Below, piece by piece: positions 18,421 to 51,700 of a stretch of 64,000 nt of DNA (position 1 is the stretch's first letter; every line of letters begins with the position of its first letter). A model generated the notes under the pieces. That model saw only the letters and a list, made by a program, of their open reading frames with translations, did not search any database and was not told where the DNA came from. The position numbers were made by a program, and so were the translations under genes. Location: the IMG/VR virus record IMGVR_UViG_3300009104_000009, positions 19,892 to 83,891 of that record, one strand, 5' to 3'. Origin of the DNA: a virus.

Positions 18421-18801
18421 ATGGCATATTCAAAAAAGGTAGTGGACCACTATGAACAACCGAGAAATGTGGGTTCTCTTAATTCCTCTGACAATAGTGT
18501 TGGTACTGGTCTTGTTGGAGCGCCTGAATGTGGCGATGTAATGAAACTTCAAATTGAAGTTAAAGATAATAAAATCGTTGATGCAAAATTTAAAACATTT
18601 GGGTGTGGCTCTGCTATAGCGGCGTCGTCATTAGCAACGGAATGGGTTAAAGGTCAATCTATTGATGAAGCTATGACAGTTAGCAATGTAGAAATTGTTG
18701 AAGAATTATCACTCCCACCAGTAAAAATTCACTGTTCAGTTCTTGCGGAAGATGCTATTAAAGCAGCAATTGCAGATTATAAGGAAAAGCAGGCACTATG
18801 A
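18421..18801 (+). CDS. iscU: Fe-S cluster scaffold IscU
   Basis: YSKKVVDHYEQPRNVG, GAPECGDVMKLQI, FKTFGCGSAIA, LPPVKIHC. Preceded by CATAAATA at 18398. Confidence 0.97.
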   Translation: MAYSKKVVDHYEQPRNVGSLNSSDNSVGTGLVGAPECGDVMKLQIEVKDNKIVDAKFKTFGCGSAIAASSLATEWVKGQSIDEAMTVSNVEIVEELSLPPVKIHCSVLAEDAIKAAIADYKEKQAL

Positions 18802-19997
18802 AAAAATTTAAAGAATATTTTAAACCAGTTCAGGAAAAAGAAGAACTTAAAGAAGAAGTTCTTGAAGAGGCTGTTTATTGGCAAGTATTAATTCCTGGTA
18901 TATCAACTCCTGTTTTTATTGAAGGACCTGCAAAGTCAGGTATTAAAATGGAATTGAGAACGCAATTAAAACCGGAAGCTTGGAAGAATCTAATCATTAA
19001 TAGAATCACGAAGCCTCAAATACGAAAAATATATAGGGATATGGCGAAAGATCCCGAAATGTATGATGATGCATCAGATGGTGTTAGTGAAGCTCTTGAA
19101 GAATCTACTGCATCATATGCAAAGTCTTTGGAAAAGATTGCTAGAGATAGACAATTAAAGATGCTCTCTAAATCTGAAAGACAAAATTTACTTAAAATAG
19201 CGGCACTCTTAGATAAAGAAAAAAAAGAAGAAGTTGAATTTGATGAGGGTATTATGGATACTGCGGGATTTCATAATTATCCAAAAAGAAATAAAGTGGG
19301 AGATGAAATAGAAAAAATTGCAAGTAAAGGTGGAACAGATAAATTCAACCTTTCAAAAGTTGCTTCTGAATTACAGAAGGGTAGAATCCCACATAAGTTT
19401 ATTAAAAAACTCAGTCCAAAAGGTAAGAAAGCAGTTCATGATATTATGAAAGATTTTGGATGGAAAGAATTACCAGAAGATAATGAAGTAAATGAAGTTC
19501 CGTTCGTCCCGTTAGCTTTAGGAGCTGCGAGAATAGGTGGAGCAATCTTAAAAGGTGTAGGGCGCGGAGCAGGCAGAATCGGCACAGCCGGAGCAGGATT
19601 TGGTTTAGGGCAAGCAGCGAATGCAATATCAAAAATACCAAGCTCTGTAGGTAAGGCAGTCGCAGGTGGTGTTGCAGCAGGGGCTACAAAAGCGGCAATT
19701 AGTCATCATTTATCAAATAAGGCTAAAGAGAAAGCAAAAAAAGATAAAGAAAAAAAAGAAGAGAGTAGAGAACCTAGAATTCATATGAAAGCAATTGATG
19801 AGAAAATGGCTGATAAGTATAAAGCAATGAATAAAGCCGGTGATCAGATAATGAAACTCGCAAAAAAGTATAAATCATTTGATTTAACGAGTATCGCTTC
19901 TGAATTAAGAAAAGGCAAAATTCCAAAAATTAATAAGTTAAAACCGAATGATTTTAAAGAAGTAGGTGCAATTTACGATAAACTGGGGTTGAGATAA
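18798..19997 (+). CDS. probable internal head protein (capsid-targeting-like N-terminus, modular)
   Basis: Starts MKKFKEYF. E-bounded modules, with an internal repeat NKxGD.I.K.A....ASEL.KG.IP. Confidence 0.55.
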   Translation: MKKFKEYFKPVQEKEELKEEVLEEAVYWQVLIPGISTPVFIEGPAKSGIKMELRTQLKPEAWKNLIINRITKPQIRKIYRDMAKDPEMYDDASDGVSEALEESTASYAKSLEKIARDRQLKMLSKSERQNLLKIAALLDKEKKEEVEFDEGIMDTAGFHNYPKRNKVGDEIEKIASKGGTDKFNLSKVASELQKGRIPHKFIKKLSPKGKKAVHDIMKDFGWKELPEDNEVNEVPFVPLALGAARIGGAILKGVGRGAGRIGTAGAGFGLGQAANAISKIPSSVGKAVAGGVAAGATKAAISHHLSNKAKEKAKKDKEKKEESREPRIHMKAIDEKMADKYKAMNKAGDQIMKLAKKYKSFDLTSIASELRKGKIPKINKLKPNDFKEVGAIYDKLGLR

Positions 19998-22583: not shown

Positions 22584-23708
22584 ATGAAAAGCTTCAAACA
22601 CATGAGTTTGATGTGTTTTGTTTTGTTATTGTTATCTTTTGGATGTAGTAATTCTACTTTTTTAAATAAACCATCAACTCAAACAGATAATGAACTGGTT
22701 GAAGTTAAAAATACATCAAACTTTCAATCGATAGTAGAAAGGGCCAAGCAGGCTATAGTTCTGCTTTCTACAAGTGCCAATATAGACCCAACTACAGATC
22801 CTACTAAAAACGGATTATGTGCTGGAGTTGCTATCGATGATAAAGGACATATTCTCACAAATTATCATTGTGTTCATAAACAAAATTTTATTAAATTAAT
22901 CTATTATAATGAAAATGATTATGATATGTATGATGTCAATGTAATCGGATTAGATCCATTAGCGGATTTAGCATTACTTGAAGTCATAGGAGATGTGAAA
23001 CCAAAATCTTATGTTAAAATATCTGAAGACACTCCTAATATAAAAGAAGGAGATGAAGTATATGCAATGGGCCATCCAATGGGAATGGCTTGGACTTTAA
23101 CTAAAGGGATTATTTCTAGTAACGAAAGATATGCAAGGCATCCTTATATTAAAGTACTGCAAACCGACGCAGCTATCAATAAGGGCAATTCCGGAGGACC
23201 TCTTTTAAATATGAAAGGTGAAATTATAGGAATTAATGCGATGATTTTGTCCAGAGGAGCTGGAAGTAGTGGAGTAGGGTTAGCAATTAGGGGAGATATT
23301 GTATTAAAATCTGTAGAATCTATGCTAGCTATAGGTAAAGTTGAAAGACCAGCAGTTGGAGTAACGATTATGAGTTTACTCGGTCTTAAAGCCAGAGATA
23401 AAATAATAAAAGAATTTCCTGATCGCAAATCAGAATATATTCCAAATACTTTAGGTTTGTATATAAAACCAGATGGCGGAGTCCCGGAACCGTTAAAACC
23501 ACATGATACAATTATTGGAGTAAACGGTGTTCCAACAAATGATGGATTAAAATTTTCTGATGAATTAGGAAAATATGAGGTTGGGGATACAATTACAATA
23601 TTAATTATTCGAAAACGAGCACTTCGCGAAGTGTCGGTAACATTAAAGGCATTGCCAGTGGATGTGGAAAAATTGTATCCTAAAAATCCAATGCAGATAA
23701 GACCTTAG
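22584..23708 (+). CDS. HtrA/DegP-family serine protease with PDZ domain, probable lipoprotein
   Basis: LTNYHCV, DLALL, QTDAAINKGNSGGPL; lipobox-like SFGC; C-terminal PDZ-like region. Confidence 0.92.
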   Translation: MKSFKHMSLMCFVLLLLSFGCSNSTFLNKPSTQTDNELVEVKNTSNFQSIVERAKQAIVLLSTSANIDPTTDPTKNGLCAGVAIDDKGHILTNYHCVHKQNFIKLIYYNENDYDMYDVNVIGLDPLADLALLEVIGDVKPKSYVKISEDTPNIKEGDEVYAMGHPMGMAWTLTKGIISSNERYARHPYIKVLQTDAAINKGNSGGPLLNMKGEIIGINAMILSRGAGSSGVGLAIRGDIVLKSVESMLAIGKVERPAVGVTIMSLLGLKARDKIIKEFPDRKSEYIPNTLGLYIKPDGGVPEPLKPHDTIIGVNGVPTNDGLKFSDELGKYEVGDTITILIIRKRALREVSVTLKALPVDVEKLYPKNPMQIRP

Positions 23709-31363: not shown

Positions 31364-32396
31364 TGGTTGGGATCCGCTAAAAGAAGTAATAGTTGGTGAC
31401 GCATCTAATGCTATAATTCCTTCATTTGAATTATCCATGAAAAATTTCATGTATGCAAATTTAAGTGAAGAGCAAATTAATTCTATAACAGGTCCATATG
31501 ATAAGCAAGTTATAGAAGAAACTAATGAGGACTTGGAATTATTATGTAGAGTTTTAGAAAGTCAGGATATAAAAGTTTATAGACCAAAAAAGATTAATCA
31601 TAAAAGAAGGTCTATGACTCCTCATTGGATTGCGCAGGGGTGGTGTACTTATTGTCCGCGTGATATATTTTTAGTACTAAATGATTGTATAATTGAAACG
31701 CCCAATGTTATGCGTAGCCGATATTTTGAGATGCATGCATATAGACATATTTTGAATCAATGTAAAGGTAAATGGTTCTCCGCGCCTAGGCCTCAGTTAT
31801 TAGATGAATCATTTAATTTTGATGATTTATCAAAACCAACATTGATGAATAAAGAAGCTCTTTTTGATGCTCCAAATGTTGTAAGAATGGGTAGAGACTT
31901 AATATATCAAGTGAGTAATAGCGGTAATGAAAAAGGAGGTGAATGGCTCCAATCAATGTTTCCGGAATATAAAATACATATAGAAAGAGAATCATATTCA
32001 GGAGCTCATTTTGATAGCACGGTGATACCATTAAGACCTGGATTAGTATTATTAAACGGTCAACGATGCACTCCAAAAAATTATCCGAAGATATTTAAGA
32101 ATTGGGATAAAATATTCTTTACTGATATAGTAGATCAAGGTATCCCAAGTGCCGGCGGATCATCCAATGCCAGTGCAGCTATCTCATCACCTGCAATAGG
32201 ATTAAACTTATTAAGTATTAATGAAAAAGTATGTATTGTAGATGAAAATCAACTTCCTCTTATTACGAAATTAAGAGATCACAACATTGATGCAATCCCT
32301 ATGCGTTTAAGACATGCAAAAACTTTAGGCGGAGGCTTTCATTGTGTAACATTAGATTTAAACAGAACTGGTACTTTACAACAGTATGACTTCTAA
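31344..32396 (+). CDS. amidinotransferase (glycine / inosamine-phosphate StrB1-like)
   Basis: WDPLKEVIVG, YCPRD, FDAPN, HFDST, LGGGFHCVTLD catalytic motifs. Confidence 0.92.
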   Translation: MNIQSNNGWDPLKEVIVGDASNAIIPSFELSMKNFMYANLSEEQINSITGPYDKQVIEETNEDLELLCRVLESQDIKVYRPKKINHKRRSMTPHWIAQGWCTYCPRDIFLVLNDCIIETPNVMRSRYFEMHAYRHILNQCKGKWFSAPRPQLLDESFNFDDLSKPTLMNKEALFDAPNVVRMGRDLIYQVSNSGNEKGGEWLQSMFPEYKIHIERESYSGAHFDSTVIPLRPGLVLLNGQRCTPKNYPKIFKNWDKIFFTDIVDQGIPSAGGSSNASAAISSPAIGLNLLSINEKVCIVDENQLPLITKLRDHNIDAIPMRLRHAKTLGGGFHCVTLDLNRTGTLQQYDF

Positions 32397-34182
32397 ACGT
32401 ATTGCGTTCGTAGAACTCTCACATATTTTTACTAATCAGATTAAATTACCCTATTCTACGGGTTGTATCTGGAGTTATTGTAAAACTGATAAAGAGATTA
32501 CCGATAGTTACTCTTTTGATGTTCATGATTGGATATATGTTCTAGATGAAAATTTAGATATCAATAAAACTGCTAAACAATTATCAAAATGTGATGTTGT
32601 AGGTATTTCGTATTTTGTATGGAATACTCATGTTAGTGATAAGTTAGCTAAACAAATAAGATACATAAATCCTAAGTGTGTGATCATATATGGTGGATTA
32701 GGTATACCAAAATACGGTCGATGCGAAAAGTTTCTCAAAGACAGGCCTTATATCGACGTTATAGTACATAATGAAGGCGAGATAGTATTTAAGAATATAT
32801 TGAAAGCTTTACATCGAAAAGAGGATTTAAGAAATGTTAAAGGAATCACAACACCTTTCTTTTCAACACCCTTAGAAGAAAGAGTAAAAGATATATCATC
32901 TATGCCTAGTCCATATCTTGATGGATTATTTGATGATCTCCTAGCAATTAAAAATCATTCATATGAGTGGGAGAGTTTAGTAGAATTAGAACGAGGTTGT
33001 CCTTATACATGCACATTCTGCGAAGTTGGAGATAGGCATTGGACGAAGATATTTAAACAGGATTATAATAAGTTAGTAAGAGAAATTGATTGGGTATCAG
33101 ATAAGAAGATAGAGTATCTACATCTAATTGATAATAACTTTGGTATGTATAAAGAGCAAAAAGTTATATCCGACTTACTTATAGATAAGTATAAATTGAC
33201 TGGTTATCCTAATGCTCTTAATATAACGTGGGCAAAGCATAAGAAACCATTCTTATTTGATATAGCAGAAGATTTATGGAAGGTAGGGCTCAATAAGAGT
33301 GTTACGATCGCTCTACAGTCGATGAATTCTTCTACATTAAAAGCGATCGAAAGAGCAAATGAAAATACTAATTTAAGAGAGGTATTAGCAAATTTAAAAT
33401 GGAGAGGTATGCCTGCTTATATAGAAACTATTCTCGGCCTACCAGAGGAATCATTAGATAGTTTTAAAGAAGGAATATATAGATTGATTGACGATATAAA
33501 TTATCATAATTATATCGGCATATATGTAATGGTTGCATTACCTAATACTCCATTTGGCGATCCTGAATATCTCAAAAAATATAATGTACAAATAAAGCAA
33601 ACATCCCCCGCATTTTTTCATCATGAAAATCCCCCAGATCAATTATTAGAAGAAGTCAATAACGTAGTCGTTGGATCTAACAGTATGACATTTGATGATT
33701 ACTTAGAAGCAACAGGGTGGAAGTGGTTTATGATATCTCTACATTTTTTAGGATGGCTTAGAATATTAGCATTAGAATTAAAAAATAATCATAACATATC
33801 AATGAGAGAGTTTTATAACGGATTATTCGAATGGTTTATTAATAATGATCAAACATTATTGTATAGAGAATATACAATTACAATGAGAATGTTAAAGAAA
33901 GTGTTTAATAGAGAGATTCCATGGGGTCGTAAAGTATCGGATGTTTCTAATATATACTGGGAGTATGAAGAAGCCACAGCAATACACATTGCTAAAGAAA
34001 AGAATCGTTTCTATGGAGAGATAGAAGATTATTTAAAAGAAGAATATGGATTTAATTATTCTATAACAACGAATCAATATAACAAGATGAAAGACCCTTA
34101 CGAAGTCTATAACGGCGATTTAGAAAAATGGGCTCGTGAATGCATGTGGTGGGGTCGAAGAGCGGAGAGGTTTTTCGTATGA
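32386..34182 (+). CDS. B12-binding radical SAM enzyme
   Basis: LPYSTG, SYFVWN, GG, EGE (B12 domain), followed by RGCPYTCTFC, DNNFG and ILGLPEE. Confidence 0.9.
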   Translation: MTSKRIAFVELSHIFTNQIKLPYSTGCIWSYCKTDKEITDSYSFDVHDWIYVLDENLDINKTAKQLSKCDVVGISYFVWNTHVSDKLAKQIRYINPKCVIIYGGLGIPKYGRCEKFLKDRPYIDVIVHNEGEIVFKNILKALHRKEDLRNVKGITTPFFSTPLEERVKDISSMPSPYLDGLFDDLLAIKNHSYEWESLVELERGCPYTCTFCEVGDRHWTKIFKQDYNKLVREIDWVSDKKIEYLHLIDNNFGMYKEQKVISDLLIDKYKLTGYPNALNITWAKHKKPFLFDIAEDLWKVGLNKSVTIALQSMNSSTLKAIERANENTNLREVLANLKWRGMPAYIETILGLPEESLDSFKEGIYRLIDDINYHNYIGIYVMVALPNTPFGDPEYLKKYNVQIKQTSPAFFHHENPPDQLLEEVNNVVVGSNSMTFDDYLEATGWKWFMISLHFLGWLRILALELKNNHNISMREFYNGLFEWFINNDQTLLYREYTITMRMLKKVFNREIPWGRKVSDVSNIYWEYEEATAIHIAKEKNRFYGEIEDYLKEEYGFNYSITTNQYNKMKDPYEVYNGDLEKWARECMWWGRRAERFFV

Positions 34183-35878: not shown

Positions 35879-36175
35879 ATGTACAAACCGCTTCCACACA
35901 ATATTACAATTAAAGAATCTCCCATTGAAGGCTTAGGCCTTTTCGCAACAGAAAAAATTACAGCACAAACATTGATTGGAATCACTCATCACGCTGATGA
36001 GCGAGCGGAAGATGGGTGGATTAGAACTCCTTTAGGCGGCTTTGGAAATCATTCGGACGATCCCAACTGCTTCAAACTTTTAATGGACCCCAAAACTTTT
36101 TGGATTGGAGCTAATCGAGATATTAAACCTGGAGAAGAACTGACGTGGAGCTATACATTATATAAATGTGACTAA
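35879..36175 (+). CDS. SET-domain protein (lysine methyltransferase fold)
   Basis: SPIEGLGLFA, GNHSDDPNC, DIKPGEELTWSY. Confidence 0.88.
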   Translation: MYKPLPHNITIKESPIEGLGLFATEKITAQTLIGITHHADERAEDGWIRTPLGGFGNHSDDPNCFKLLMDPKTFWIGANRDIKPGEELTWSYTLYKCD

Positions 36176-36698
36176 ACATTTATACGGAGAAAAGAAGATG
36201 CCGATACACAAGCATTTACTTGTCCGCGCAGAAGTAAAGCGCCCGATCACAGAAGAAAAAGAAATTAAAAAATGGTTAAAAAAATTAGTAAATAAAATTG
36301 ATATGAAAATCATTAAGGGTCCTTTCGCAGGCTACGTTCATAAGGATGGAAACCGCGGATTGACAGGCGCCGTAATGATAGAAACAAGTCATATATCAAT
36401 ACATATTTGGGATGAACCAGACCCAGCATTAGTACAATTTGATGTTTATTCATGCGCGGAATATTCTACTAATGAAGTTTTAGCAGAACTTATAATAATG
36501 GAACCAGTTAAAGTTGAACACATGCTTATAGATAGAGATAGTAAACCAGAGGACATTAAACCAGGTCTTTATGGTAGTTGTTTTAAAATGACAAATCATT
36601 CAGTTTCTGAACACAAATCACATCCAAAAATACAAAAATATGATGATGAAGAGCGAAAAGAAATAATCAGAAAAGGTTATATATCTAGTTACGAATAA
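36168..36698 (+). CDS. speD: S-adenosylmethionine decarboxylase proenzyme
   Basis: IETSHISIHIW (autocleavage site) and DVYSC. Confidence 0.85.
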   Translation: MTKHLYGEKKMPIHKHLLVRAEVKRPITEEKEIKKWLKKLVNKIDMKIIKGPFAGYVHKDGNRGLTGAVMIETSHISIHIWDEPDPALVQFDVYSCAEYSTNEVLAELIIMEPVKVEHMLIDRDSKPEDIKPGLYGSCFKMTNHSVSEHKSHPKIQKYDDEERKEIIRKGYISSYE

Positions 36699-37645: not shown

Positions 37646-38482
37646 ATGTCAGAAAATCTTCAAGAAAAACCCGCATTTTGCGATATACCTGGCGGTCCTA
37701 GGGATCCAAATCTTAAAGCACGATGTGCAAAGCCTGATGCTCCCGCCGCGCCTAAAAAACCTGCTGACATTAGATCTAAAGCTCTAACGGACACGGAAAA
37801 GAAAAGAAAAAGAATACAGAGTTTGGGTCTTACACATGAAAGTGAAAAGAAAGAATCTTTCAAGCAATTCAAAGATAGAATTACATTGGAAGCAAATTTA
37901 AATGATTACGTTAAAAAATATAAAATGAAAATGGGTGATAAAACTTCTACAGTAGATAAAGATAAATGGGTTGAAGGTATTGGTGGATTAACTAAGAGAG
38001 AGCAAGCAACCCTAAAACGTGTATTACAAGGACATACCAGAGAAGGTGTAAAGGAAGACGCTGAATTTGCTGATGAGTTAGAATTAGTAGAATTAGCTCC
38101 GGTAATAGGTCTTGCAATAAGGGGTGCCGCGGCTGCTACAAAAACACCGATTAGACGAGCAATTACGAAGCATGTAGTAAAAAAAGCAGTAAACAAAGCA
38201 ACCTCACCTCCTCCACCTTCAAATAATGAAGAAGTAGTAAATGAGAGTAAGGAACTTCAAGCTAAGATGGCGTTAGATGATGCAAAGATTAAGTATAAAG
38301 TAGAAGATGGTAAGATATATGTGGATAAAAAAGATCTTATGAAAGCTGAAAAGACCGTAGCAAAATCATTTAGAGTTAAGCCTAGAAACTTAGATGGGAA
38401 AAAATATCCCGCATTATATTATCACGGCGGAAGTTTAGGCATATGGAATAAGAAAAGACCTATAACAGGAATGGGTAGATGA
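37646..38482 (+). CDS. probable internal head protein (modular)
   Basis: Internal ESFKQFKDRITLEA motif and E-bounded basic modules. Confidence 0.5.
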   Translation: MSENLQEKPAFCDIPGGPRDPNLKARCAKPDAPAAPKKPADIRSKALTDTEKKRKRIQSLGLTHESEKKESFKQFKDRITLEANLNDYVKKYKMKMGDKTSTVDKDKWVEGIGGLTKREQATLKRVLQGHTREGVKEDAEFADELELVELAPVIGLAIRGAAAATKTPIRRAITKHVVKKAVNKATSPPPPSNNEEVVNESKELQAKMALDDAKIKYKVEDGKIYVDKKDLMKAEKTVAKSFRVKPRNLDGKKYPALYYHGGSLGIWNKKRPITGMGR

Positions 38483-38976
38483 GAACGTTTATAGAACATG
38501 TAATAATTGAACAAGAATTACGTATGGATAGAGAATTGCAAAATATTCTTATGATTCATGCTAAAGATTATAAATTATTCAGAGAAGGTAAACAGGAACT
38601 ATCAGAGTTACCTCATTTGTATAATGATTTAGTAAAACATTGGCAGACAGATATGCCGTACGGAGTAACAAAAGCCCGTGAGGGTGACCCCTATGAATGG
38701 ATTGCGAACAAATTGAATAGTATTGAAGAACACGGTGAGCCAATGCCAAAGTCATTAGTTCACAATTGAGCTACACACGTTAAACATCCAAGTTTGGGTG
38801 ATGAAGAATTAGAAGTAATAAGTCACAGTTTAGATGAAGATGGTAGAATAGAACAATACAGAGTTAAACCGCCACGCAATGCTCAAATTGGTTCAACAGT
38901 AGTTCTGCAAGCAGAAGAAGTTACTGTAACTAGAGAGCACAGTCACAAACACAAGGTAAAACCCAAAATTAAATAA
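38479..38976 (+). CDS. putative selenoprotein (165 aa, Sec97) with capsid-targeting-like N-terminus; joins ORF-track 38479-38769 and 38794-38976
   Basis: The TGA at 38767-38769 is followed by an open frame (ATHVKHPSLGDEELEVISHSLDEDGRIEQYRV...) and a SECIS-like hairpin at 38785-38800. Confidence 0.7.
38785..38800 (+). promoter_or_regulatory. SECIS-like hairpin
   Basis: CAUCCA-AGUU-UGGGUG begins 15 nt after the UGA, with the loop G at +23. Confidence 0.65.
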
Positions 38977-38980
38977 TGAA

Positions 38981-39151
38981 ATGAAGACTTTTAAAGAATT
39001 TGGAGCATTCTTCGATGCAACTTTGTCGCAAGATGAAAAAGAGGACATTCCCGTTTTTTCAGATGAGAAGCTTTCAGACACTTCTTACGCAGCCAAAGTT
39101 CGACCAGCTTATAAAGACAAGCAAAAGAAGAAGCAAGTCGATAAATCTTAA
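38981..39151 (+). CDS. small internal head protein candidate (56 aa; not in ORF track)
   Basis: Starts MKTFKEF, close to the T4 capsid-targeting sequence MKTYQEF. Confidence 0.6.
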   Translation: MKTFKEFGAFFDATLSQDEKEDIPVFSDEKLSDTSYAAKVRPAYKDKQKKKQVDKS

Positions 39152-39170
39152 TATATATCATAAATTTTGA

Positions 39171-39710
39171 ATGGATTTATTAAAACATACATACAGCAAT
39201 CTATCCCCTTATAAAAATCACGAGCAAAAATTATATAAGAAGGGCGACAACTGGTATAAAGAAGTCCGTGAAGGATATTTCGATGATTTTGATATTGAAG
39301 CCTTACGTACATATATCGAAGTATATGATTTTATAGACCCTCCAATAACATTGGAATTGGAAGACGGTGTTTTTAAATATGAATGTAGAGACTTATCTAA
39401 GACACATAAACAACTCATAGATATCCCATATAATCGTCAAATCAAAATTCTCGGTAAATTGTTATCAGAGGTAATGCATTCTTTTTTAGAGTTCTCTGAA
39501 GCAAGAGGGAAAGTAGATATTCCAACGCCCAGTAATCCAACAGGAAAAAAAATTTTTTGTCACAGAGACTTAGCTTTTCATAATATCTATGTCGCTGGTG
39601 ATGATATTAAACTAATAGATATTGATTCGTTTATGTGGACTAACAGAGGCGATTTCAAATCCTACTATCAATATACTCTTTTAAGATTGGCACAGCATTT
39701 TGATCACTAA
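39171..39710 (+). CDS. protein-kinase-like phosphotransferase (APH/choline kinase type)
   Basis: CHRDLAFHNIYV...IKLIDID. Confidence 0.7.
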   Translation: MDLLKHTYSNLSPYKNHEQKLYKKGDNWYKEVREGYFDDFDIEALRTYIEVYDFIDPPITLELEDGVFKYECRDLSKTHKQLIDIPYNRQIKILGKLLSEVMHSFLEFSEARGKVDIPTPSNPTGKKIFCHRDLAFHNIYVAGDDIKLIDIDSFMWTNRGDFKSYYQYTLLRLAQHFDH

Positions 39711-40830
39711 ACCTTGCCTAGCACCTTTTAACTCAATTTTTCATAATTATGATGGTGCTACTTCTGTATGCTGTCACAGACCTGTTGAGATCACAGGTAA
39801 GACCCTACACGAGAGCATGCACGATGAGAAACTACAAGCAATAAGAAGAAGTTTCGCTAAAGGAGAGACACCTCCAGAGTGTCGGTTATGTCCTAAGCAG
39901 ATGAGAGAGTATCATACTGAGAATATCTCTAAGAATATTAAAAGTATTTCATTAGAAAATAAGTTCACTCCAGTAGCTGTAGATTTCTTCTGGTCTAATA
40001 AGTGTAATTTCGCATGCTTAGGGTGTGATAGTTATAAGAGCTCAACAATTGATAAGAATTTTAGAGAGATATATGAGATAATAGATCATCAGAGGCCTGT
40101 TCCTAATATAGGATATGATAAGCAAGAGAGATTTGATTATATACTAGAAAATTCCGACAGTATTAGAATAATGCATTTATCGAGTTCCGGAGAACCATGG
40201 ATTGAAGATAATATCTATGAGTTATTAGAGCTCTTAGTAGAGCATAAGTTATTTAACATTGAAATAGCGACCCATACTAATGGAAGTATATTGAATTATA
40301 AGAATAAGAGTATGATTGATATATTAGATAATTGGAATGGTAACGCAACTGTTATAATGAGTAATGACGGTACAGGAAAAAGAGGAGAGTATGTCAGATA
40401 TGGTTATAAAGATAAAATGTGGTTAAGGACGTATAATAAACTAAAAGAATCTAGCATTAACGTATATGTTCACTACTGTATGAACTTATTCAATATAATG
40501 TATCTCAGAGAAGATGCAGAATGGTTTAAAGAGAATTGTGATGATACTGATATACTCTTAAGATATTGGGAATGGCCTTCTTTATTAACGTCTAAGTTTT
40601 TAAAATATTGGGGTGATTTGTATGACGAATCAATTGATTCATTCAATAGCGCGAAATCCTATTATAAGGATTCGGAGTATGCTGAAGATTACCTAAATAC
40701 TATAGGGAGAGGAAATAATTTTAAAGATGATGTTTCGCGATTTAGTTCATTTATACAGAAGATAGATGAAAAAAGAAATACTGATTTTGTAAAAACTTTT
40801 CCAAAGTTGAATGAGATTGTTTTATGGTAG
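39700..40830 (+). CDS. radical SAM protein with N-terminal SPASM/twitch-like Cys cluster
   Basis: C.APF...VCC...ECRLC; CNFACLGC; SGEP; TNG. Confidence 0.85.
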   Translation: MITKPCLAPFNSIFHNYDGATSVCCHRPVEITGKTLHESMHDEKLQAIRRSFAKGETPPECRLCPKQMREYHTENISKNIKSISLENKFTPVAVDFFWSNKCNFACLGCDSYKSSTIDKNFREIYEIIDHQRPVPNIGYDKQERFDYILENSDSIRIMHLSSSGEPWIEDNIYELLELLVEHKLFNIEIATHTNGSILNYKNKSMIDILDNWNGNATVIMSNDGTGKRGEYVRYGYKDKMWLRTYNKLKESSINVYVHYCMNLFNIMYLREDAEWFKENCDDTDILLRYWEWPSLLTSKFLKYWGDLYDESIDSFNSAKSYYKDSEYAEDYLNTIGRGNNFKDDVSRFSSFIQKIDEKRNTDFVKTFPKLNEIVLW

Positions 40831-41504
40831 ATAATTTAAAAGAGATTATTCACAAATCTCAAATATGTCAAAGAAATTGGGATTTGAGTGAAGAGATCCC
40901 TCAAGAGCATGTTGATTTAATTGTAGAAGCAGTTACACAAAGCCCCACCCGTCAAAATATCCCGTTCTATAATGTAGATGTTGTTACAGACAGATCTTTA
41001 ATCAACAGTATCCATAATAATTCTGCTTTTTTTAAAATTAAACCAGGTATGGAGTTATCAGAATATTCTCACGCTGTCGTTAGGGGTTCAGATGTAGAGA
41101 AGGATGAAGATGGTGTTATCACAAAAACTAATCCTCAAGTGCTAGCTCCCTTATTACTTGTTTTTAGTGCTAATGAAGAGACTTATTACGATAATCAGTT
41201 ACGACATGGTAAAGACTCTGCGGAACGTGTTAAGTGGGAAAAAGACGTAAGCCTTTCTATAGGCGTAGCATCTGGATTTGCAAAACTAATATCTACACAA
41301 TTAGGATATGTAAGTGGTTTTTGCGCTTGTTATGGTGAAGAAATAGATAAACTAATAGGATCTTCGGTACGGTTATTTCTTGGGATAGGAAAGCCTGATA
41401 AAAACAAGAAATATACAGAGAGTCATATTGAGGAATTTGAATATCCCAGCTTTAAAGATGTAAAGAGATTAAAACCTGTAAAAGTAGAGTGGCATAATGG
41501 CTAA
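40824..41504 (+). CDS. nitroreductase-family protein
   Basis: SQICQRNWD, SPTRQN, SIGVASG...LGYVSGFCAC, LGIG; paralog of 59021. Confidence 0.78.
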   Translation: MVDNLKEIIHKSQICQRNWDLSEEIPQEHVDLIVEAVTQSPTRQNIPFYNVDVVTDRSLINSIHNNSAFFKIKPGMELSEYSHAVVRGSDVEKDEDGVITKTNPQVLAPLLLVFSANEETYYDNQLRHGKDSAERVKWEKDVSLSIGVASGFAKLISTQLGYVSGFCACYGEEIDKLIGSSVRLFLGIGKPDKNKKYTESHIEEFEYPSFKDVKRLKPVKVEWHNG

Positions 41505-41730
41505 ATGGAAAATCAGATATTGTAGTTCTTGAAACTACAAACCGAACGCAGAAAGTCTTTCTGCTGAAATGAAAAAATTAGGTTATGACGTTGAAATTGA
41601 ACAAGGAGATACTGGACAATTTGAGCTATTTAAATGGTCCACCACATTGTGGATGTCATTTATGAAAGGTGGACATGGAAAGTTCTTTGGAATACAGGAA
41701 GTGACGGAGGCATTAACTAATACGGAGTAA
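41497..41730 (+). CDS. Rdx / SelW-SelT-SelH family selenoprotein (77 aa, CSSU; missing from ORF track)
   Basis: MAKWKIRYCSS-UGA-NYKPNAESLSAEMKKLGYDVEIEQGDTGQFELF...GKF. This is the Rdx IxYCxxU.Y...A..L and GxFE(V/L) pattern, and the gene exactly fills an intergenic gap. Confidence 0.9.
41548..41564 (+). promoter_or_regulatory. SECIS-like hairpin
   Basis: GCAGAA-AGUCU-UUCUGC begins 15 nt after the UGA (41530-41532), with the loop G at +23. Confidence 0.8.
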
Positions 41731-49383: not shown

Positions 49384-50342
49384 AAATTATCGCAGGTAAT
49401 TCAAATAAGGATTTAGCTTTATCAATTGCTCAATATTGTAAACAACCATTATGTGAAATAGAATTAGTTAAATTTGCTGACAATGAAGTGTCATGTATGA
49501 TCAAAGAGAATGTGCGTGGCGAAGATGTATTCATTATTCAGAGTACGTGTAATCCTGCTAATGATCATTTAATGGAGATGTTGGTATTAATAGATGCTTG
49601 TAGGAGAGCATCAGTTAAAAGTGTAACAGCGGTGATTCCTTATTTCGGTTATGCAAGACAAGATAGAAAACCTGTTTCCAGAACACCTATAACATCTAAA
49701 TTAGTAGCTAAGATGTTAGAAGCGGCAGGTGCTGATAGAATAGTAACAATGGATTTACATGCCGGACAGATACAAGGGTTCTTTAATATTCCGGTGGATG
49801 ATTTAAGTTCAAAGCCTTTGTTCGTAGAGGACCTGAAAGCTGGAAGAGAATGGGGTGATATTGAACAAGTAATAATTTCTCCGGATGCTGGTGGAGTTGC
49901 TAGAGCAAGAAAGGTTGCAAAGAAATTAGATCTGGAAATAGCGATCATTGATAAACGTAGAGAAAAAGCTAATCAAGTTGCATCAATGAATGTTATTGGA
50001 GATGTAGAAGGAAAGAGATGTGTTATTGTTGATGATATAATTGATACAGGTGGAACACTTATTCAAGCAGCAGAAGCATTATTAGAAAGAGGTGCTGAAT
50101 CTGTTGAAGCATATATAACACATGGAGTTTTAAGTAAAGGTGGAAAACAAAGAATAGAAGAATCTGAAGCTATAACTAAATTAGTAATAACAGATACAAT
50201 ACCAAATAGTGAATCGTGGATTAATCCTGAAAGACAATTACCAGCTATACAAGCAGTAAGGATATTACCAGTGGCACCTGTATTTGCTGAAGCGATTAGA
50301 AGAATAAATCATAATGAATCAATTTCGATATTATTTGAATGA
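49380..50342 (+). CDS. prs: ribose-phosphate pyrophosphokinase
   Basis: FADNEV, PYFGYARQDRK, DLHAGQIQGFF, SPDAGG, VDDIIDTGGT. Confidence 0.97.
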   Translation: MKIIAGNSNKDLALSIAQYCKQPLCEIELVKFADNEVSCMIKENVRGEDVFIIQSTCNPANDHLMEMLVLIDACRRASVKSVTAVIPYFGYARQDRKPVSRTPITSKLVAKMLEAAGADRIVTMDLHAGQIQGFFNIPVDDLSSKPLFVEDLKAGREWGDIEQVIISPDAGGVARARKVAKKLDLEIAIIDKRREKANQVASMNVIGDVEGKRCVIVDDIIDTGGTLIQAAEALLERGAESVEAYITHGVLSKGGKQRIEESEAITKLVITDTIPNSESWINPERQLPAIQAVRILPVAPVFAEAIRRINHNESISILFE

Positions 50343-51700
50343 ATCCTAAAACACATCCGACATATTGTCACTATCCATTTAAAGCCATGACTTTTAAGAA
50401 GTGGTCTAAGGATGGTAAGAGACCTATTAATGTTACACCTTGCTGTATGATGATGAATCCTGTAGAGCAAGAAGATGAGGAACCGGATAAGCATTATAAT
50501 ATGGGGCTTACCGAAGATGTGTTAAAGGGAAAGAATCCTTTAGAAATATTTAATTCGGAACCATATGAAAAGCTAAGAAATGATTTATCAAATGGTATAA
50601 AGAATGAAGCATGTACTGTTTGCTGGAAACAAGAAGAAGACGGTTTAGAATCATTTAGACAATGTTCTGATTTATATGGTGGTTCTGAAGGTTTATTTGA
50701 GTTTGACATAACCCTTTCTAACCTATGCAATTTAGCGTGTAGAATGTGCAATATGGGAAGTTCTCACCAAATAGGTAAGGATATAAAGGAATTGATCAAG
50801 ACAGGTTATTATGATGACTTTCAGGAGGCTAGCAATAGAGCAATGCCACAAGAGAAAGGTGTTGTATATGATTCTTCTTCAAATGATGTTATTGATTGGT
50901 TGATGAATAATACTCATCAGATAACAATGTTGAAAGCATCTGGTGGAGAACCTTTTTACGATAGAAGAGTTATAAAGGTATTAGAAAAATATGCTAAAGA
51001 TGGAACTGCAAAGAATACAACATTAAAGTTTCATACTAATGCTACTCAGTTTACACCCGAGTTAGCAAATTTATTAAATGAATTTAAAAGTCAAAATCAT
51101 ACGTTTAGTATAGATGGTACAGGTAAGGTTTATAATTATATTCGACATCTATCTGATTGGGATAAATTAAATGAGAGTCTAGATAATTATTTCAGTACAT
51201 GTACTAATATCGACAATCAATATTTTAATATGGTATTGTCTGGTCTTAATGTTTTAAATGCGGCTGACTATATAGAATGGGTTTGTAATAAATGTGAATA
51301 TTATAATGTTCCTAATTACTATATACATTTTTCAGAAATTTTTCCATATAATAGAGGAACAGCAGTTAGGAATGTATATAATCATTTGTTAGAAAAAGCT
51401 CTAGATAGAATTATAGAAATTATAGATGATGGTATAGCGTATGTTGCTCCTTCAGATACAGTTCAAGCTACTATAAGGGGCAAAGAATATAAAGCATGGT
51501 ATAGATTTGATTTACATAATCTAGTAGCACAAATACAAAACGGTATAAAGTTTGGTAATGGTACCTTTAAAAAATTAAAAGTAGAAACTGTTCTCCTAGA
51601 TCATGTTAGAGATCAGTGGTATGGGGATTACTTAGATAGAGACTTAACCGATCACTTAATTAAAGAGATTGTTATGCATCCCGATATACCGACGTTTTAA
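50339..51700 (+). CDS. radical SAM protein with SPASM/twitch-like Cys cluster
   Basis: YCHYPF, PCC, ACTVCW, CNLACRMC, SGGEPF, HTN, SIDG. Confidence 0.88.
   Translation: MNPKTHPTYCHYPFKAMTFKKWSKDGKRPINVTPCCMMMNPVEQEDEEPDKHYNMGLTEDVLKGKNPLEIFNSEPYEKLRNDLSNGIKNEACTVCWKQEEDGLESFRQCSDLYGGSEGLFEFDITLSNLCNLACRMCNMGSSHQIGKDIKELIKTGYYDDFQEASNRAMPQEKGVVYDSSSNDVIDWLMNNTHQITMLKASGGEPFYDRRVIKVLEKYAKDGTAKNTTLKFHTNATQFTPELANLLNEFKSQNHTFSIDGTGKVYNYIRHLSDWDKLNESLDNYFSTCTNIDNQYFNMVLSGLNVLNAADYIEWVCNKCEYYNVPNYYIHFSEIFPYNRGTAVRNVYNHLLEKALDRIIEIIDDGIAYVAPSDTVQATIRGKEYKAWYRFDLHNLVAQIQNGIKFGNGTFKKLKVETVLLDHVRDQWYGDYLDRDLTDHLIKEIVMHPDIPTF

Follow-up and report, generated by a model that had tools for sequence, protein, structure and literature searches.

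An in-frame UGA aligned with cysteine in a T4-like phage gene: a candidate selenoprotein family with a histidine-rich site

Does the TGA codon at positions 38767-38769 of a 64,000-nucleotide stretch of viral DNA end a gene, or is it translated in the middle of a longer one? The stretch, hereafter the window, covers positions 19,892 to 83,891 of the IMG/VR record IMGVR_UViG_3300009104_000009, and its positions are counted from its first letter. On the plus strand, a single frame runs from ATG 38479 to TAA 38974-38976 and is interrupted by this TGA only. The open reading frame (ORF) up to the TGA (38479-38769) has 96 codons and ends in ..SLVHN, and its ATG shares bases with the stop codon of the upstream ORF (ATGA). 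When the TGA is read through, the product has 165 amino acids (aa), with the recoded residue, taken here as selenocysteine (Sec, U), at position 97 in the context ..SLVHN-U-ATHVKHPSLG... The sole start-like codon 3' of the TGA is TTG 38794-38796, which lies within a hairpin (38785-38800) and is without a Shine-Dalgarno (SD) sequence.

A preliminary description of the window had claimed that the ORF caller split one gene in two, the second piece being in frame and starting at a TTG buried in the hairpin and without an SD, and that the fused 165-aa product begins MRTFIEHVIIE and has many histidines around the UGA (HN-U-ATHVKH, SHSL, HSHKH). All of this held on re-examination: the frame is open across the TGA, public gene calls are split in the identical way, and the translation has the leader and the histidines as claimed. 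Based on the results of this study, UGA 97 is most probably decoded as selenocysteine by the SelB system of the host, and 38479-38976 would then be one gene. This reading is favored because the UGA is conserved, the frame downstream of it is translated, Sec is paired with Cys in homologues, a hairpin with SECIS (selenocysteine insertion sequence) geometry follows the codon, and a second gene of the same record has a C-x-x-U motif. Selenium insertion itself we infer from the sequence rather than observe directly.

Conservation of the UGA codon and its cysteine counterparts

The DNA of relatives was taken from IMG/VR and from Joint Genome Institute (JGI) metagenomes. TGA was present at codon 97 in 16/16 relatives that have the C-terminal part; their aa identity is 64-77%, and 10 of the sequences are distinct. 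Two family scans with overlapping sets, 55 loci in all, gave TGA in 24/24 IMG/VR loci found by a DNA pattern allowing any TGN at the codon, and in 31/31 loci retrieved solely by protein motifs downstream of the hairpin (G-x-IEEYY; H-x-H..KKK tail). The blocks AAT TGA GCT and CCA AGT TTG GGT were unchanged across the relatives, and the codons between them drifted synonymously (ACA/ACC/ACT, CAC/CAT, GTT/GTG/GTC). The ratio of nonsynonymous to synonymous substitution rates (dN/dS) was 0.08 in the N-terminal part and 0.20 in the first 38 codons past the TGA. Frame 0 was free of stops for 60 codons past the TGA in every relative, with 4-9 stops in the other two frames. Synonymous drift, low dN/dS and the open frame together indicate that the stretch past the TGA is translated, including the eight codons before the TTG, and by these comparisons the downstream frame is under purifying selection.

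Many of the Sec forms are mini-proteins of 85-92 aa, in which an ATG preceded by an SD is followed by 23 codons, the UGA and 63-68 codons without a start. Since only 23 codons precede the UGA and no later start is found, a reading as two genes is impossible there, and such a gene, as its layout indicates, is senseless unless the UGA is decoded. The loci L164-L187 (e.g., L164:1897-2163:-) encode Sec mini-proteins with a poly-Lys tail. In the full-length fused form, the Sec barrel stands behind a complete N-terminal domain (N-domain) and the gene resembles an ordinary 96-aa ORF. Relatives without the C-terminal part (L002-4 and L096-98) end a few codons past the N-domain, so that two fused modules make up the gene. 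Residues 84-165 were not found in any longer fused form when such forms were searched for. Cultured phages gave no match to the gene with blastn or tblastn, nor did a search for related loci starting from the public protein P0010 give any. Public gene calls have the N-terminal part on hundreds of contigs, as "hypothetical proteins" of 96 or 90 aa, and one public piece of 75 aa (P0009) is called from the TTG. A few public calls are full length with W at the site; the underlying DNA has TGA, and these W-bearing database entries are code-4 miscalls.

The residue that belongs at this position was indicated by distant homologues. When a profile made from the C-terminal part (A2) was compared with 1.84 billion representatives, 22 proteins aligned across the site. 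In thirteen of them, with 18 domain copies, the residue is Cys, every time within H-x-C-A-(T/S/K)-(H)-V. In eight it is W, each then with an ..HPSLGE-like sequence, and the remaining match is P0009. The lowest E-value among the W (TGA) forms was 1e-12, and the Cys forms had E-values of 2.5e-7 and weaker. Wherever W forms could be traced to DNA (those like P0011, P0017, P0024 and P0025), the codon was TGA every time. The Cys forms are found in the cultured T4-like cyanophages P-HM1, P-HM2, P-SSM7, MED4-213, S-ShM2, S-RIM14, S-SSM2 and S-CAM3, and in gene PHM1_163 of P-HM1 the aligned codon is TGT. In addition, phrog_22379 matches residues 84-131 across the UGA (E 5e-4), and the structure matches in BFVD are the cyanophage family (probability 1.0). 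In an alignment of 34 Sec and Cys sequences (A5), the invariant columns are H95, U/C97, A98, G107, H116, G122, Y127 and H156. The usual mark of selenocysteine is just this, a conserved UGA opposite an invariant Cys.

The motif H-x-C-A-x-H-V, which the preliminary description had mentioned for T4-like phages, is thus real in cyanophages. Its suggestion to inspect column 97 by profile search led to Cys in 13 representatives, and the homologues are continuous single proteins with Cys, not pairs of proteins or proteins with some other residue. The cyanophage proteins (PHROGs 22379, 11470 and 764) share the domain and its His, Cys, Gly and Tyr columns with the window protein. However, they have a Cys codon and no hairpin, often have a second Cys (G-x-G-x-C), and often have two or three domain copies in proteins of 190-1000 aa. 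Cyanobacteria were without the Sec trait in one genome survey (PMC1794560), and Cys in cyanophages versus Sec in their non-cyanophage cousins fits this, as a correlation only. Two annotations in this group look wrong. PHM1_163 (L188, P-HM1 142290-143597) is labeled "possible cytitidyltransferase", and no cytidylyltransferase domain was found in it by Pfam; S-PM2p144 (L232, S-PM2 106558-106833), labeled NrdB or "ribonucleotide reductase alpha subunit", is an SH3-like piece of 92 aa with homology to the PHM1_163 N-terminus.

The hairpin, a second recoded gene and competing readings

In the consensus for bacterial SECIS elements, the loop has 3-9 nt, the stem 4-16 bp and the distance from UGA to loop 16-37 nt, with a G at loop position 1 or 2, usually with G/U next to it on the 3' side, and a folding energy of -7.5 kcal/mol or lower (PMC13188914). 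The window hairpin has this geometry, with loop AGUU, a 6-bp stem and a loop start 21 nt from the UGA. The twelve bases CCA AGT TTG GGT are fixed at synonymous sites while adjoining codons drift. A fixed SECIS-like rule (at least five consecutive pairs, a 4-5-nt loop N-G-U, and loop start 18-25 nt past the UGA) was passed by 25/28 unique family sequences versus 29/3267 (0.9%) TGA trinucleotides of the 84-kb record, and both in-frame TGAs of the record pass it with the loop at exactly 21 nt. Depending on the clade, the loop is AGUU, AGUUU or GGUC, with G-U constant at loop positions 2-3: the L216-219 clade has CAC CCA GGU CUG GGU G with loop GGUC, and the L189-195 clade has CAU CCU CAG UUU GGG GAG with the stem re-registered by one base and loop AGUUU. 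Among 26 distinct sequences, pairing was found in 88.5% of cells versus 18-55% in slid controls. Three pairs of the stem are invariant, one varies on one side (U.G 15, C-G 11), and double changes are confined to the optional seventh pair (U-A 7, G-C 2). Energies across the relatives range from -5.4 to -10.6 kcal/mol. All TGA members have a hairpin beginning 15 nt past the UGA, with a loop N-G-U-N. The stretch H-P-(S/G/Q)-(L/F)-G, the segment that encodes the hairpin, is absent from the Cys copies (0/18), and the RNA of the P-HM1 Cys sequence folds differently.

Only two genes of the record need recoding, and the other one, at 41497-41730, reads MAKWKIRYCSSU.. and matches the Pfam family Rdx (PF10262; SelW/SelT/SelH family) with 31 bits against a cut-off of 22.6. 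Its hairpin GCAGAA-AGUC-UUUCUGC starts 15 nt past the UGA and has a folding z-score of -2.2. One relative (L091) keeps the gene, the TGA and the hairpin, with a compensatory change from A-U to G-C in the stem. The gene lies 2.7 kb downstream of the 38479-38976 gene in an operon-like stretch and adjoins a nitroreductase-like gene; tblastn of its protein against cultured phages gave no match. SelW-like C-x-x-U proteins were the most abundant selenoproteins in marine metagenomes (PMC2398784). The likelihood of Sec decoding in this virus-host pair is raised considerably by such a SelW-like gene, whose spacing and loop type are the same.

Several observations weigh against Sec decoding of codon 97. 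No tRNA-Sec above the cut-off was found in seven phage fragments (~500 kb), and neither selB nor selD was found in the two records examined for these genes. The system must accordingly come from the host, which is presumed to have the Sec machinery. The energy of the window hairpin (-6.4 to -7.2 kcal/mol) is above the consensus cut-off and is no different from that of shuffled sequences (z 0.6 and -0.6), and it was accordingly left out of the support. Strict covariation was not significant, with 84/500 shuffles reaching the observed score of a near-invariant stem, and the invariance of the hairpin in the IMG/VR set is partly a product of the DNA search pattern used for the 24-locus scan. Moreover, the motif matches no known redox motif, and the predicted fold offers no clue to function (best PDB Z 5).

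A genome-wide reassignment of TGA is not indicated, as TAA, TAG and TGA all serve as gene ends in the record and are directly followed by ATG starts. The UGA could also be read by a standard tRNA, either a near-cognate tRNA-Trp or a suppressor, with the hairpin as a stimulator of programmed read-through. Read-through of this kind yields a short and a long isoform, as with the A1 protein of Qbeta. The 96-aa N-terminal part is a complete domain that stands free in L002-4 and L096-98, which suits a short isoform, and gene callers that read TGA as W obtain an intact protein. With only 46% of the genome in hand, a suppressor tRNA could be encoded in the remainder, but no tRNA with anticodon UCA or otherwise reading UGA was found in the 84 kb. 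A short isoform would also be senseless in the mini-proteins with their 23 codons before the UGA. In every distant homologue an invariant Cys stands opposite the codon, and the identity of the residue is therefore of importance; the loop retains the G-U common to SelB-type SECIS elements, and the second recoded gene has a C-x-x-U typical of Rdx/SelW proteins. Decoding by a standard tRNA thus appears improbable, though it deserves more weight than the two readings that follow.

That the locus holds two genes, a 96-aa protein ending at the TGA and a 60-aa protein made from TTG 38794 by termination-reinitiation, is how ORF callers and public annotation have it, and the TTG is kept in most relatives. 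However, the eight codons from TGA to TTG show synonymous-only or conservative change and hold A98, T99, H100 and H103, which are within the domain of the Cys homologues, themselves single continuous proteins. The TTG, without an SD and located in the stem, is replaced by CTG in the L216 clade and by TTT in the L189 clade with the frame kept, and we consider the two-gene reading very improbable. Finally, a TGA lies one substitution from the Cys and Trp codons and the record is a metagenomic contig, so the codon could have come from TGT, TGC or TGG in a decaying gene or from an assembly error. The same TGA in independent assemblies from many samples, in clades down to ~35% identity, and purifying selection on both sides of it make this hardly credible.

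Domains, genome context and the capsid question

The positions of the features are collected in Table 1. The product has a predicted modular structure. In the AlphaFold2 model made on the family alignment, a helical N-domain (residues 18-85, pLDDT 81-90) is joined by a floppy linker (85-92) to a five-stranded barrel (residues ~93-158, pLDDT 79), and residues 1-15 have pLDDT <50. In a PDB fold search, the C-terminal domain matched generic SH3/KOW/Tudor barrels weakly (best Z 5.0; root mean square deviation 3.2 over 57 residues), and the whole protein matched nothing. Pfam holds no family for the product or its Sec domain. The "cytidyltransferase" label in the group of PHROGs 22379, 11470 and 764 is without support. 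The preliminary description had stressed that the protein has no CxxU or thioredoxin motif and belongs to no recognized selenoprotein family; both points were borne out, with H-N-U-A-T-H in a predicted SH3-like barrel, no Pfam match and no place among the known families. C-x-x-U is found in the Rdx/SelW-type gene 41497-41730 and not in 38479-38976.

Table 1. Features of the candidate selenoprotein gene and of the second recoded gene (window positions)
Feature	Position	Strand	Remarks
Whole recoded gene	38479-38976	+	165 sense codons (UGA = codon 97) and TAA; frame kept across TGA in 16 relatives
Leader MRTFIEHVIIE	38479-38511	+	Resembles T4 capsid-targeting sequence; I-I-E at residues 9-11; putative role
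N-terminal helical domain, residues ~20-84, LY.AL...MPYGV.KAR.GDPYEW	38536-38730	+	AlphaFold2 helices 18-85
In-frame UGA, probable selenocysteine (U97)	38767-38769	+	TGA in relatives; Cys at aligned column in distant homologues
Spacer of 15 nt from UGA to hairpin, encoding A-T-H-V-K	38770-38784	+	Synonymous codon variation among relatives
SECIS-like hairpin CAUCCA-AGUU-UGGGUG, 6-bp stem, loop AGUU	38785-38800	+	Loop begins 21 nt after UGA
TTG taken by ORF callers as start of a "second gene", judged not real	38794-38796	+	In 3' arm of hairpin; no SD
Sec domain, residues 95-158, predicted five-stranded SH3/KOW-like beta-barrel	38761-38952	+	Alignment of 34 sequences; AlphaFold2 model
Basic C-terminal tail KHKVKPKIK	38953-38973	+	Relatives terminate in Lys runs
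Rdx/SelW-like gene, C-S-S-U, TGA 41530-41532, hairpin 41548-41564, loop AGUC	41497-41730	+	Pfam PF10262 match

In the AlphaFold2 model, the Sec lies in the first barrel strand (H-N-U-A-T-H-V-K-H), and we infer from the strand order of such barrels that H95 and U97 should lie near H116 at the end of strand 2 and H156 at the end of strand 5. Because the invariant residues include three His and the Sec/Cys, the selenol would most likely serve as ligand or nucleophile in a metal or redox center of the His3-Sec/Cys type. The metal-binding or redox role proposed in the preliminary description agrees with this invariant pattern. The Lys-rich tail of all members suggests contact with nucleic acid. The N-domain (LYDALYDYY..MPYGV.KARDGDPYEW) is a widespread module in proteins of 300-1300 aa in marine and freshwater phages (L005-L080 and L099-L160). 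No Pfam or PHROG family was found for it, and PHROG scans of the large N-domain proteins gave one weak match to "virion structural protein", outside the domain and insufficient for a role. In some podovirus-like contigs, the module lies just upstream of a terminase-like gene.

By its gene content the record, an IMG/VR entry of 83,891 bp from an uncultured marine phage, estimated to be 46% complete, is a T4-like myovirus. A gp21-type protease (PF03420, 113 bits; G000:11623-12075) is encoded in the 20 kb upstream of the window, and we read the ORFs around it, by size and order, as gp17, gp18, gp19, gp20, gp22 and gp23. The gp23 is ~66% identical to those of cyanomyoviruses, the OM43 phage Melnitz and Stenotrophomonas phage DLP6, and gp46 is 47-50% identical to those of Melnitz and cyanomyoviruses. 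This T4-like head module is in the same record ~43 kb upstream of the gene. The preliminary description had placed the gene among head-protein-like genes, which was not borne out, as its neighbors are enzyme-like or without family matches; what stood of its interpretation was the single recoded gene, the UGA as Sec and the new family, with Cys homologues. As for the host, 185,579 species genomes were scanned, and no link emerged: the three matches, in metagenome-assembled genomes, were unrelated and concerned the N-domain only. No T4 late-promoter motif (TATAAATA) was found near the gene, and scans for sigma-70 promoters and terminators were at background level.

The surroundings of the two selenoprotein genes have a density of enzymes that is unusual for a T4-like phage. 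Radical-SAM genes are found at 32386-34182, 39700-40830 and 50339-51700, one of which also has a domain for B12 binding; an ORF resembling S-adenosylmethionine decarboxylase is at 36168-36698. Elsewhere in the window, 22584-23708 encodes a trypsin/PDZ protease that resembles DegP and has a signal peptide (MKSFKHMSLMCFVLLLLSFGC) of lipoprotein type, and a weaker trypsin-like ORF is at 18798-19997. A 79-kb record (G001, L001; IMGVR_UViG_3300031804_000498), collinear with the window phage and with a gp21 protease, is classed as "provirus" by IMG/VR, which is probably a misclassification.

Whether the product is packaged in the capsid and injected, as the preliminary description had supposed, was considered from the leader MRTFIEHVIIE, whose likeness to T4 is to MKTYQEFIAE, which we take to be the T4 leader sequence. 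Among the 154 ORFs of the record, six start with M-(K/R/E)-(S/T/K)-(F/Y) versus ~0.5 expected, an excess of ~12-fold. The next ORF (38981-39151, 56 aa) starts with MKTFKEF, which comes nearer to the T4 leader than any other start in the window, and is retained after the homologous gene in L093. In the leader of the gene itself, F occupies position 4 and H position 7, and I-I-E stands at 9-11, not at 8-10. In the T4 internal proteins, the first 10 residues target the prohead, with positions 4 and 7 being important, and gp21 cleaves the leader after L/I-x-E; in IPIII, an Asp at position 10 blocks cleavage and not targeting (PMC9026906). The I-I-E fits L/I-x-E. The mini-proteins start with MKT(F/Y)xE(F/M)xxD, with Asp at position 10.

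The T4-like leader, the gene for a gp21 protease and the excess of such leaders are the grounds for supposing that the product is packaged, which, on these features of the genome, has perhaps slightly less than an even chance of being the case. In virion proteomics, no link to the Sec domain was found via cyanophage data. T4-GC190 ("cytitidyltransferase"), an experimentally found cyanophage virion protein, was tried as virion evidence for the domain and rejected because GC190 and GC534 of S-PM2 are without the H-x-C-A domain; the link also fails in P-HM1, where a separate gene, PHM1_163, contains the domain.

Proposed decoding and comparison with known systems

If the UGA is decoded as proposed, the mRNA would be read up to UGA 97, with the tRNA-Sec, SelA/SelD and SelB of the host serving its decoding. 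SelB carrying Sec-tRNA-Sec would bind the hairpin while it is not yet melted by the ribosome and deliver Sec, and translation would then enter the barrel. Release factor 2 (RF2) would compete with SelB at the UGA, and where it wins, the 96-aa N-domain alone would result, a form for which some relatives have a free-standing gene. Judged from bacterial Sec insertion in general, the ratio of N-domain to full-length product could depend on the selenium supply. The complete product would consist of a short T4-type leader, a helical N-domain (the GDPYEW module), a flexible linker and an SH3-like barrel. A fuller scenario, in which the leader-tagged His3-Sec metallo- or redox protein is capsid cargo that enters the head by the T4 route and is injected along with the DNA, the UGA acts as a selenium-dependent switch from the 96-aa N-domain protein to the full selenoprotein, and the protein forms with the SelW-like one a small phage "selenoproteome" of abundant ocean viruses, is speculative and, taken as a whole, rather unlikely to hold.

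If Sec decoding is true, phages tap the UGA-recoding system of their hosts, and selenium joins the trace elements that shape the interplay of viruses and hosts in the ocean. Many "truncated hypothetical proteins" of marine viromes would then be explained, the N-terminal part being found alone on hundreds of contigs, and host prediction would gain a new marker in a Sec/Cys switch that follows the capability of the host, with Cys in cyanophages. Selenoprotein chemistry would gain a His3-Sec site outside the thioredoxin fold.

As far as the selenoprotein literature was searched, the family is new to it. No selenoproteins of bacteriophages were named in the reviews and databases searched (a 2026 review, BSepDB and deep-Sep), and a review of viral recoding names two poxviruses as the only viruses with selenoproteins. 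The motifs HPSLG, ATHIKH, ATHVKH and CATHV were absent from the supplements of the Global Ocean Sampling (GOS) selenoproteome, and an identity with the "hypothetical proteins GOS_A-C" could not be established.

Among known systems, the internal proteins IPI-III and Alt of T4 (PMC9026906, PMC3012670) resemble the candidate in the putative M-(K/R)-T-(F/Y)-x-E-type leader with its L/I-x-E site, in the gp21-type protease of the genome, in small basic products and in a leader common to several genes. They differ in that no homology extends past the leader and that packaging and ejection are, for the candidate, a supposition. The bacterial genes with a SECIS element inside the ORF, of which E. coli fdhF is the prototype (PMC13188914), share the in-frame UGA, the hairpin within the coding sequence, the G-U early in the apical loop and the Cys homologues at the Sec position. 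In contrast to them, the gene studied here is borne by a phage, belongs to a new family, has a hairpin weaker than -7.5 kcal/mol and would obtain its machinery from the host. Selenoproteins encoded by viruses are known from poxviruses, i.e., the glutathione peroxidases of molluscum contagiosum virus and fowlpox virus, the latter with its SECIS within the coding region (PMC8310308). Like the phage gene as read here, these depend on the Sec machinery of the host. However, the poxvirus proteins are captured cellular enzymes with a eukaryotic SECIS, whereas the phage gene would use an element of bacterial type in a family specific to phages.

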